Positions 4,207 to 5,395 of a stretch of DNA of 6,218 bases are shown in pieces; the stretch's first letter is position 1; each line of letters opens with the position of its first letter. The translations under genes were made by a program, and so were the position numbers. Under the pieces are notes generated by a model. It made no database searches, was not told the origin of the DNA, and saw nothing but the letters and a program-made list of their open reading frames with translations. The DNA is taken from the IMG/VR virus record IMGVR_UViG_2531839579_000022. One strand, given 5' to 3'. This DNA is from a virus (Duplodnaviria > Heunggongvirae > Uroviricota > Caudoviricetes).

Positions 4207-4410
4207 TTACGGCGCTGTTTTTAATCCTGCCGGGATTTCGTTATTATCCATGCGAATAACTTTCTCGACCGGATAACAGTTACCAGGAATTTTCTGTTCT
4301 GCTGCGGCAGCCATACATTCTTTCATTGAACCATATATACCAGTAACCACATCAACAGGTTCGCCAGTATTAAGAAAAACAGTCAGAGTGAGGGCAACAG
4401 CAGTATTCAT
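4207..4410 (-). CDS. ydfD: Small membrane protein, YdfD-like (Qin prophage lysis protein family)
   Basis: 67 aa from the ATG at 4410. That ATG overlaps the dicB stop as ATGA (stop 4407-4409, start 4408-4410). SD AAGGA sits 8 nt upstream. The N-terminal hydrophobic segment MNTAVALTLTVFL is consistent with a single transmembrane helix. Size and position directly after dicB match K-12 ydfD (63 aa). The track's longer 85-aa version starting at 4464 has no usable SD. Confidence 0.6.
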   Translation of the reverse strand: MNTAVALTLTVFLNTGEPVDVVTGIYGSMKECMAAAAEQKIPGNCYPVEKVIRMDNNEIPAGLKTAP

Positions 4411-4595
4411 TGCCAGTATCCTTTTTGCATCGGGCGTAAACGTGCCAGCATTGAAAGAATGCATATTTTATTTAATAGCTCCCGTTCGTGTTTTCTCTTG
4501 TTAATGGCATCTTCAGTAAATACAGGGTTACTGATAGTGACACCAATTTCAAAACAACCTTCAGACGTATTAACGTTTGGTAATAACGTTTCCAT
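4407..4595 (-). CDS. dicB: Cell division inhibitor DicB
   Basis: 62 aa from the ATG at 4595, preceded by GAGGA with a 7-nt spacer. The sequence METLLPNVNTSEGCFEIGVTISNPVFTEDAINKRK...LNKICI.SMLARLR matches my recollection of K-12 DicB (62 aa, MinC-dependent division inhibitor). The track ORF 4407..4691 extends upstream to a GTG but has no SD there. Lies about 180 nt downstream of the DicF-like terminator, as in Qin. Confidence 0.82.
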   Translation of the reverse strand: METLLPNVNTSEGCFEIGVTISNPVFTEDAINKRKHERELLNKICILSMLARLRPMQKGYWQ

Positions 4596-4612
4596 TATCG
4601 CGTCCTCAACAA

Positions 4613-4774
4613 TGAATTTTGTGATGCGGTGCCTGGTGCCTCCAGGTGACGTTAACCAGTTAATAATTAACGCCGGATACAGAGAACCCACCCATAAGAA
4701 CCAATACGGAAGTCAACTGGCCTTTTTAACTGTTCCGCGTGCGCTGAGCCGCATTCACCGCATCACAAAATTCA
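4613..4774. repeat. Perfect 19-bp inverted repeat (TGAATTTTGTGATGCGGTG / CACCGCATCACAAAATTCA) enclosing a 124-nt spacer
   Basis: Left arm 4613-4631 and right arm 4756-4774 are exact reverse complements; the bases immediately outside both arms do not pair. Located between the DicF-like terminator and the dicB SD. The spacer holds a CCTGG-N5-CCAGG hairpin and a 13-bp palindrome GTTAATAATTAAC (4659-4671). Confidence 0.85.
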
Positions 4775-4778
4775 CTTT

Positions 4779-4821
4779 AAAAGGGGCGGGTATCATGGGA
4801 AAAACAAAACGGATACCCGCC
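4779..4821 (-). terminator. Putative Rho-independent terminator (3' end of DicF-like RNA)
   Basis: 10-bp perfect GC-rich stem (plus 4785-4794 GGCGGGTATC paired with 4812-4821 GATACCCGCC) with a 17-nt loop. On the minus strand it is followed by CC-UUUU (plus 4779-4782). The U-tract is short and the loop long, so termination is probably partial. On the plus strand it is followed by A-rich sequence, so it is not a plus-strand terminator. Confidence 0.45.
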
Positions 4822-4835
4822 AAAAGGTAATCAAC
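4779..4835 (-). ncRNA. dicF: DicF-like small RNA (ftsZ-repressing sRNA family), diverged variant
   Basis: Minus-strand sequence ...UUGAUUACCUUUUGGCGGGUAUC-CGUUUUGUUUUUCCCAU-GAUACCCGCCCCUUUU. The 5' part (UUUGGCGG.UAUC.GUUUU) resembles my recollection of K-12 DicF (..CGUUUGGCGGUAUCAGUUUUAC..). Position is between the ydfC-like gene and dicB, as in the Qin dicB operon. Ends in a GC stem plus U-tract. The 5' end is not determinable from sequence, since in K-12 it is made by RNase E processing. Confidence 0.55.
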
Positions 4836-5161
4836 ATGGGTTGTTGCAGCGGGATTGTCACTCAGGCGTATGGTCAACCTGACAACCCGGTGGACATTTG
4901 CGAGGAACGGAGAACCCCCGCCATACTTACCGCCGCGCCATTTCGCGGAGTGCCACAACCGGAAGCGCACGGTCGACGAAAATTTAACGACAGGCTATCT
5001 ATGAACCAGCAACCTCGCCGTGCGCTTTCGCGTTATGCTCTGACTTTTCAGAGAAATATCCTTTCAGTAAACTGTCAGTGCCGGATGCTCACCCGTGTCC
5101 GGCGCACACACTCCACCTCACCCGTGGAGAACTCCTTAATTACCAACCCTCAGGAGGGTGA

Positions 5162-5395
5162 ATGTTAAAATCAACGCTTATTGCTAAATGCCTTTATCAA
5201 AATCGCATGGTAAGCAGCATTTCAATAGGCGAGTCTGCAGTTAAAAGTATTTTCGAAGAGTACTTTCCCGGGCATGATTTTAATAAATGGAATACCAAAT
5301 TACCGCCAGCAGTTTCAACGCGTATTCTGAAAGCAACTGAAAGAGCAAGTACAATTCGCGTTAACTATTTCATTAAAGATTTGTGGGATCTTTGA
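5162..5395 (+). CDS. Hypothetical small protein (77 aa); the only plus-strand gene candidate, convergent with the 135-aa ORF
   Basis: ATG at 5162 is preceded by a strong SD AGGAGG (5152-5157) with a 4-nt spacer. AT-rich coding region, in contrast to the GC-rich segment directly upstream. Not hydrophobic; no recognisable motif. Its 3' end overlaps the 3' end of the minus-strand 135-aa ORF by 23 nt (5373-5395). Real coding status is uncertain. Confidence 0.45.
   Translation: MLKSTLIAKCLYQNRMVSSISIGESAVKSIFEEYFPGHDFNKWNTKLPPAVSTRILKATERASTIRVNYFIKDLWDL

Follow-up and report, generated by a model that had tools for sequence, protein, structure and literature searches.

A long stem closing an STnc100/PasD-like RNA domain upstream of dicB and its probable processing by RNase III

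Two distant arms located between a terminator-like hairpin and the cell-division inhibitor gene dicB pair into a long helix, which is conserved as RNA pairing and is part of a larger, covarying and pseudoknotted RNA fold. The arms form the closing stem (P1) of the STnc100/PasD family of small RNAs, enlarged by an extension of about 12 bp. The sequence analysed, referred to below as the window, is the whole 6,218-nt stretch of a Caudoviricetes virus (IMG/VR record IMGVR_UViG_2531839579_000022), and the features discussed are collected in Table 1.

The explanation that we favour, and that we consider probable as a whole, is that read-through transcription of the dicB operon on the minus strand yields an RNA in which the arms pair, giving a 21-bp helix that closes a 124-nt pseudoknotted domain, and that RNase III cuts near the middle of this helix. 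The closed domain would be a relative of STnc100/PasD placed between the slot of an sRNA that ends in a terminator (occupied by DicF in K-12 and by KilS in Rac) and the dicB ribosome-binding site, and the addition of about 12 bp to an ordinary closing stem of 6-9 bp would bring the stem to the two helical turns of an RNase III substrate. Cleavage would have three consequences: the upstream RNA would acquire an alternative 3' end (that of the 72-nt DicF in K-12), the folded domain would be cut out as an RNA of about 145 nt that retains a short stem, and the dicB mRNA would keep a leader of about 25 nt in which the Shine-Dalgarno sequence (SD) is freed from its pairing with the CCUU of the terminator.

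Host cell division is blocked by the prophage products DicB and DicF, and the control of their output is still being worked out; at the stem, a single transcript would be divided between an sRNA and the mRNA of a toxin. There is support for the RNase III reading, but it is largely known, as later papers trace the cut in the K-12 homologue to a report of 1990, and for this reason the window is mainly one more copy. What the present analysis adds is that the layout of sRNA, folded leader and toxic gene recurs in Qin-like, Rac-like and Stx-phage early operons, that the dicB leader is related to the STnc100/PasD RNA family, and that the long stem is a context-specific extension of the closing stem of this family. 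Taken together, these additions provide a testable design in which RNase III would couple sRNA maturation to the translation of DicB or KilR. In the papers that we consulted, we found no account of the STnc100/PasD kinship of the dicF-dicB and kilS-kilR leaders, nor of the leader pseudoknot or the recurring module of sRNA, leader and toxic gene; the idea, suggested by our folding models, that the extension may turn the stem into a site for RNase III that at the same time masks the SD was likewise absent from them.

Table 1. Features of the dicB leader region, in window coordinates
Feature	Position	Strand	Description and basis
Terminator-like hairpin	4779..4821	minus	Occupies the DicF slot of K-12; minimum-free-energy fold, alignment with K-12 DicF
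P1 5' strand	4756..4776	minus	Arm 1 (4774-4756) plus A4776 and G4775; fold, homology
P2 hairpin	4737..4752	minus	GCGGC-UCAGC-GC(A)CGC; 5 bp, one bulged A, UNNGC loop
P3 pseudoknot 5' strand	4726..4732	minus	CAGUUAA, pairs with the P4 loop (4657-4663)
Variable insert	4675..4725	minus	Sequence and length differ among copies (alignment A2)
P4 hairpin	4648..4674	minus	GGCGUUAAUU (4674-4665), loop AUUAACU (4664-4658), GGUUAACGUC (4657-4648)
P5 hairpin	4632..4646	minus	CCUGG-AGGCA-CCAGG; abuts arm 2 directly
P1 3' strand	4611..4631	minus	Arm 2 (4631-4613) plus U4612 and U4611; fold, homology
dicB Shine-Dalgarno	4603..4607	minus	GAGGA; predicted pairing with CCUU of the terminator tail (4784-4781) in uncut RNA
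dicB	4407..4595	minus	62 codons plus stop; cell-division inhibitor; Pfam PF05358, 128.6 bits; RefSeq annotation of near-identical genomes

Pairing of the arms

The initial annotation described a perfect 19-bp inverted repeat with a gap of 124 nt, and a repeat search of the window recovered exactly this: arms of 19 nt each at 4613-4631 and 4756-4774, 100% complementary and separated by 124 nt. In our own scan, this pair was the longest perfect inverted repeat of the whole window at loop lengths of up to 300 nt, whereas the longest inverted repeat in each of 300 dinucleotide-preserving shuffles measured 9-14 nt, and the analytic chance expectation for a repeat of at least 19 nt is ~7e-6. The transcribed strand is the minus strand, on which the order is terminator-like hairpin, arm 1, 124-nt core, arm 2, SD and dicB. 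The U run of the terminator is followed by a 4-nt spacer (AAAG) and arm 1 (4774-4756), and arm 2 (4631-4613) is followed by a 5-nt spacer (UUGUU), GAGGA (4607-4603) and the dicB ATG at 4595. The accompanying proposal of a long-range RNA duplex in the size class of RNase III substrates is borne out by the minimum-free-energy fold of a 261-nt minus-strand RNA (z = -5.3), in which the helix grows to 21 bp (4756-4776 with 4611-4631), made up of 19 Watson-Crick pairs, one G.U and one A-U. Substrates of E. coli RNase III need two helical turns, and the 21-bp helix provides continuous double-stranded RNA of about that extent (roughly at least 20 bp).

Related copies were gathered from viral and genome contigs with the conserved core, and not the arms, as the search pattern; the scan of genome contigs with the exact core gave 13 loci, and viral contigs supplied most of the diversity. 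In the resulting alignment of 58 distinct sequences of the long-stem subgroup (A2), the 21 pairs were paired in 96.7% of cases, compared with 34-56% when the partner was slid by 1-3 columns. Two pairs carry compensatory double changes (U-A to C-G and A-U to G-C), a count that was reached in 37 of 500 shuffles, and many one-sided changes yield G.U. Because the MAFFT alignment put the bulge gap in the wrong place in 5 rows of A2, inflating the number of unpaired cells, we recounted the pairs in a bulge-aware manner over 20 arm haplotypes (127 instances), which gave 377 Watson-Crick pairs, 36 G.U and 7 mismatches. The check called for at the outset, whether the arms co-vary in related copies, thus came out in favour of kept complementarity: over the 20 haplotypes, the 21-bp helix is 98.3% paired when read as minus-strand RNA, against 89.8% for the opposite strand or DNA. 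An A.C mismatch at pair 16 occurs in about 8 copies, and a perfect helix is therefore not required.

Overall, these observations support selection for pairing at the RNA level, and they favour RNA over DNA operators because the G.U wobbles and compensatory changes preserve pairing. The sequence comparison is supportive of this conclusion without being overwhelming, the subgroup being shallow; covariation in the outer 12 bp is limited because the subgroup sequences are closely related.

The fold enclosed by the arms

The sole meaningful Rfam match in the window is to STnc100 (RF02076; 4772-4618, minus strand; 33.5 bits, E = 1.5e-4), at a score that lies below the gathering score of 47 bits, and the enclosing helix of the STnc100 model coincides with the inner part of the arms. 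Against the same model, the K-12 copies in Qin and Rac score 34.4 and 28 bits, respectively, and the short-type copies found by the core pattern score 72-132 bits, identifying them as bona fide STnc100 genes. The window element contains the core motifs and helices of RF02076 (P1, P2, P4 and P5) and has in common with the STnc100/PasD RNAs of lambdoid and Stx prophages, in addition to these helices, GGUGAAU, UCACCNGGAGGCACNNGGCACC and the P3 pseudoknot. It differs from them in scoring below the gathering threshold, in a P1 of 21 bp where theirs has 6-9 bp, in the sequence class of P2, and in having an ORF directly 3'. While RF02076 describes a stand-alone sRNA with its own intrinsic terminator, the window element has no terminator after arm 2 like the GCCCCUCUCCGGAGGGGC of short-type copies; the dicB SD lies 5 nt downstream instead. 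The preprint on Pas/STnc100 makes no mention of dicB, DicF, kilR or RNase III.

The features of the family were derived from 130 unique sequences; RNAalifold applied to the family alignment returned P1, P2 and P5 only, and P4 and the P3 pseudoknot were obtained by anchored search. P1 is anchored by GGUG...CACC and covaries (GCAUGGUG/CACCAUGC, GUGGUG/CACCAC, ACUACGGUG/CACCGUAGU, AUUGCGGUG/CACCGCAAU and others). It comprises 6-9 bp in the 74 unique short-type members, with pairing at background level from pair 9 outwards, and the inner ~9 nt of arm 1 correspond to this family stem, while its outer ~12 nt form the extension, a feature of the long-stem subgroup alone. P2 covaries in three classes (CCCCC/GG-GGG, GCGGC/GC-CGC and CUUUC/GA-AGG) in which 5 bp, the bulged base and the UNNGC loop are kept. 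The P4 hairpin is conserved across the family, and its loop plus G4657 serves as the 3' strand of P3. For P3, a mean of 6.2 contiguous bp was observed, compared with 4.1 when loops were swapped between members, and its covarying pairs include GACUGG/CCAGUC, UGCUGGU/AUCAGCG, ACACCGG/CUGGUGU and GUCUAG/CUAGGC (family loci L005-L228). The P5 stem covaries as well (U-A, G-C and G.U) within the family form CCNGG-AGGCA-CCNGG, the loop AGGCA being invariant in the window, P7 and STnc100 copies.

The extracts aligned in A2, which consist of the element and fixed flanks, are 155-181 nt long. Their length differences reside in the variable insert and are not multiples of 3, and the insert and interior are therefore not coding. 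A 94-codon ORF (GTG at 4691; 4407-4691, minus strand) does run in frame through the element into dicB. A coding role for this extension was rejected, as the length of the element varies among copies and the frame is broken. This frame-breaking variation is consistent with translation of DicB from an internal in-phase start, as stated in the title of Cam et al. 1988 (cited in PMC5069750).

Of 5426 complete E. coli genomes, 4727 contain matches to the 600 nt surrounding dicB, mostly with 80-90% identity and at 11,565 places in all, and the matched loci always underlie dicB and the DUF1482/ydfD gene. The long 21-bp form was found only directly upstream of ORFs, which encode DicB, KilR, a Rha/Ash regulator or a 94-aa protein of no known family, with the start codon 32-44 nt after CACC, or 17-29 nt past the 3' arm of 19/20 nt. 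The KilR loci with the long form belong to Rac-like and Stx phages, and their helix consists of 10 bp, a bulged A and another 10 bp. Lambdoid prophages may have placed the P1-P5 domain before toxic early genes (dicB, kilR and genes of the Rha family); elsewhere the domain is, as judged from sequence, the stand-alone STnc100/PasD RNA beside phage tRNA clusters.

Tandem STnc100 arrays are situated directly 3' of phage tRNA genes, with four copies in ~1.1 kb at one locus (L012 2265-3380) and a further array at another (L005 8044-8560), and the copy in phage P7 (L003 1705-2616) follows tRNA-Asn and tRNA-Thr and precedes terB. E. coli-like dicB leaders, 85-88% identical, were also encountered under unexpected labels (hits H54 and H62; loci L133 and L135). 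One lies near one end of a 254-kb record labelled Aeromonas phage AP1, and others occur in records labelled Actinobacillus phage, Veillonella MAG and Nanosynbacter MAG. These records look like chimeric assemblies or contamination and not true hosts.

Processing of the transcript and rival readings

Upstream of arm 1, the hairpin that the initial annotation called a DicF-like terminator has the position of DicF and a motif in common with it (TTGGCGG.TATC.GTTTT), but not membership of the DicF family. K-12 DicF, Rac KilS and the hairpins of Stx phages can all be aligned with it; 9 nt of the DicF body are missing, and the loop differs from that of DicF. The DicF covariance model (RF00039) gave no match, either on the window at E<=1 or, with the limit raised to E<=10, on the 161 nt of 4740-4900, with K-12 DicF scoring 76.7 bits as a positive control, and a near-identical RefSeq genome carries no ncRNA annotation at this hairpin. 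The 10-bp stem (4821-4785), in which GGCGGGUAUC (4821-4812) pairs with GAUACCCGCC (4794-4785), is followed by CC and then UUUU (4782-4779). A consensus terminator scan missed it because its 17-nt loop exceeds the 8-nt limit of the scan. From its sequence, this hairpin region (4779-4850, minus strand) may be a divergent sRNA of the DicF slot with other targets or just a terminator.

In K-12, a 72-nt DicF is reported to be made by RNase III (Faubladier, Cam and Bouche 1990, as cited in PMC9438474 and PMC5069750), and the same two papers describe it as coexisting with a terminated form of 53 nt, which is 19 nt shorter. In MG1655 coordinates, dicF is annotated at 1649382-1649434 and the homologue of arm 1 is located at 1649444-1649462, and a 72-nt RNA counted from the annotated dicF 5' end has its last nucleotide at 1649453, at nucleotide 10 of MG1655 arm 1. 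Because this placement is built on the figure of 72 nt and on the annotated 5' end, it is possibly several nt off, still within the arm; if the real 53-nt end takes in part of the U run, the cut shifts a few nt inward and again stays within the arm. The coordinates thus point closely to this helix as the published K-12 RNase III site. A screen comparing RNA-seq of rnc and wild-type strains lists a site marked as known at 1649470 ("dicF-dicB"), at 26 reads versus 0, which is the noise floor of that table; the position falls within the element, 8 nt past the 3' end of arm 1. The earlier claim that RNase III takes part in K-12 DicF maturation agrees with the reported 72-nt 3' end in arm 1; the RNase III cut best documented in recent work (Ragunathan 2023) is another site, upstream of DicF, where it makes the 5' end of a 190-nt species.

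An RNase III-dependent 3' end inside arm 1 would extend by homology from this K-12 literature to the window, where the cut would fall near 4765/4764 (minus strand), give or take a few nt, and the partner cut, assuming a 2-nt 3' overhang, near 4621/4620 (minus strand). The K-12 cut position coincides with the boundary between the family-length stem and the extension, and cleavage at this border would release the enclosed RNA with a stem of ordinary length. We infer that the core would be set free as a separate RNA and that dicB translation or stability may be affected. The separation of the sRNA from the dicB mRNA through a duplex of RNase III size, as envisaged at the outset, is supported by the comparative pairing together with the K-12 literature.

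The consequences for translation were assessed with the ViennaRNA partition function. The predicted pairing between the SD and CCUU comprises 4 bp, which stack on the long helix with a small internal loop in between. In the full-length RNA, the probability that SD GAGG is unpaired is at most 0.03 for the window and at most 0.14 for K-12, while three of the four SD nucleotides reach 0.99 in an RNA that starts at the predicted arm-2 cut; masking and unmasking are predicted for both of these dicB-type sequences. At kil-type loci, the predicted helix continues through the U run and masks the SD in part only. The dicB AUG is predicted to lie in a small AU-rich hairpin, GAUAAUG...CGUUAUU (4574-4600, minus strand), in both uncut and cut RNA, and its probability of being unpaired is at most 0.01 in the window. 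The model suggests that cleavage by RNase III may activate dicB translation by freeing the SD. A further step, in which the domain is a third product of the operon or its folded or occupied state gates the stem, the cut and the SD, is a speculative one to which we assign a low probability; if true, it would amount to a conditional gate on division-inhibitor synthesis. No sigma-70-like promoter was found in 4380-5200, and we rejected an internal promoter for dicB accordingly; Ragunathan 2023 did not find an internal promoter in K-12.

The most serious rival to the processing explanation is that the stem is purely architectural, serving an STnc100-like domain with a function of its own in binding protein or RNA, so that the RNase III cut would be incidental turnover. 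A closing stem is present in all family members, the core is highly conserved with invariant single-stranded motifs, and neither a long stem nor a downstream ORF is needed by bona fide STnc100 copies. However, because a stem of 6-9 bp suffices for the fold elsewhere, the extra 12 bp need explaining: the full 21 bp occur only where an ORF follows at once, the extension is paired across the 20 haplotypes, and RNase III does cut there in K-12, as recounted in PMC9438474 and PMC5069750. On balance, we view a purely architectural stem as a serious but unlikely reading. It is also conceivable that the helix acts on transcription, through read-through into dicB or access of Rho, rather than on processing. 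Arm 1 starts 4 nt past the U run, the CCUU of the terminator is predicted to take part in the outer extension, and kilR in Rac is silenced by Rho, all of which could be counted in favour of such a role. An effect on the terminator decision is nevertheless unlikely because arm 2 is transcribed ~145 nt later, and no structure in competition with the terminator stem appears in the folds; we consider a role in transcription very improbable.

Two other readings treat the arms as DNA. A perfect inverted repeat is symmetric, so that the window sequence alone cannot separate DNA from RNA, and the arms had alternatively been proposed to be paired operators for a looping regulator; a cruciform or a recombination site would be further options of this kind. 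The evidence from related copies speaks against all of these: in DNA, or when read from the opposite strand, the 36 G.U pairs would turn into C.A mismatches, compensatory changes keep complementarity and not sequence, and the stem sequence varies freely in the wider family while the interior is conserved. Moreover, the arms are part of a covarying, pseudoknotted RNA fold that an RNA enzyme, RNase III, is reported to cut in K-12, and we attach next to no weight to DNA sites. Equally hard to credit is a miniature transposable element of 162 bp in which the 19-bp arms would be the terminal inverted repeats, even though the core occurs in contexts as varied as dicB, kilR, P7 terB, the region downstream of stx2 and tandem arrays. 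Every copy points in the sense direction of its operon and immediately precedes an ORF or a terminator. The supposed "terminal repeats" covary and show the lowest conservation, around a nearly invariant interior, which is the opposite of a transposon end. When the unit was assessed for membership of the MITEs, no target-site duplication was found (the flanks read ...CAACAA and CTTTAA...), the arms proved variable and the interior conserved, and this assignment was rejected.

Comparison with known systems

The K-12 Qin dicF-dicB region is homologous to the window, ~87% identical over 600 nt, and has an identical order of elements from the hairpin and U run to dicB. Its arms are identical to those of the window except for a C to U change on each strand, by which two adjacent G-C pairs become G.U; as a result, the 19 bp that are fully Watson-Crick in the window include two tandem G.U in K-12 Qin. 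The variable insert of the window is 14 nt longer than that of K-12 Qin, and the upstream hairpin is not DicF by Rfam, unlike the DicF of K-12 Qin.

In Rac, the KilS-element-kilR region shows the same three-part layout as Qin and the window, with the core before a division-inhibitor gene. KilS is an annotated sRNA and a weak relative of DicF (39.1 bits) with a terminator end, after which come the element and kilR, and the Rac helix consists of 10 bp, a bulged A and 10 bp with one G.U. The MG1655 Rac copy (L230 81-255, minus strand) carries changes in the otherwise invariant core (GCGGAAC to GUGGCAC, GGCACC to GACACC, UCCGGCGUUAAUU to GCCGACUGUAAUU and UUAACGUC to UUGCAGUC), and some of its changes in P4 compensate. 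From its sequence, this copy looks to be either decaying within a cryptic prophage or a variant in its own right. The rnc RNA-seq screen also lists a site assigned to kilR-sieB at 1418510 (L230 position 361), which is located 8 nt upstream of the annotated KilS 5' end. We dropped this site as support for cleavage of the Rac helix, as it lies upstream of KilS and outside the helix. The Qin and Rac modules may nonetheless share both RNase III processing sites, because the site at 1418510 upstream of KilS parallels the RNase III cut upstream of DicF.

The stems that flank 16S and 23S rRNA and the RNase III sites of the T7 early region and the lambda N leader are arrangements in which distant flanks form a helix of about two turns and an RNase III cut excises the enclosed RNA. 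Cutting such stems separates neighbouring cistrons, and downstream translation can change. These systems are unrelated in sequence to the unit in the window, which is much smaller; what they appear to have in common with it, by analogy, is the pairing of distant flanks into a helix of about two turns around an enclosed RNA.
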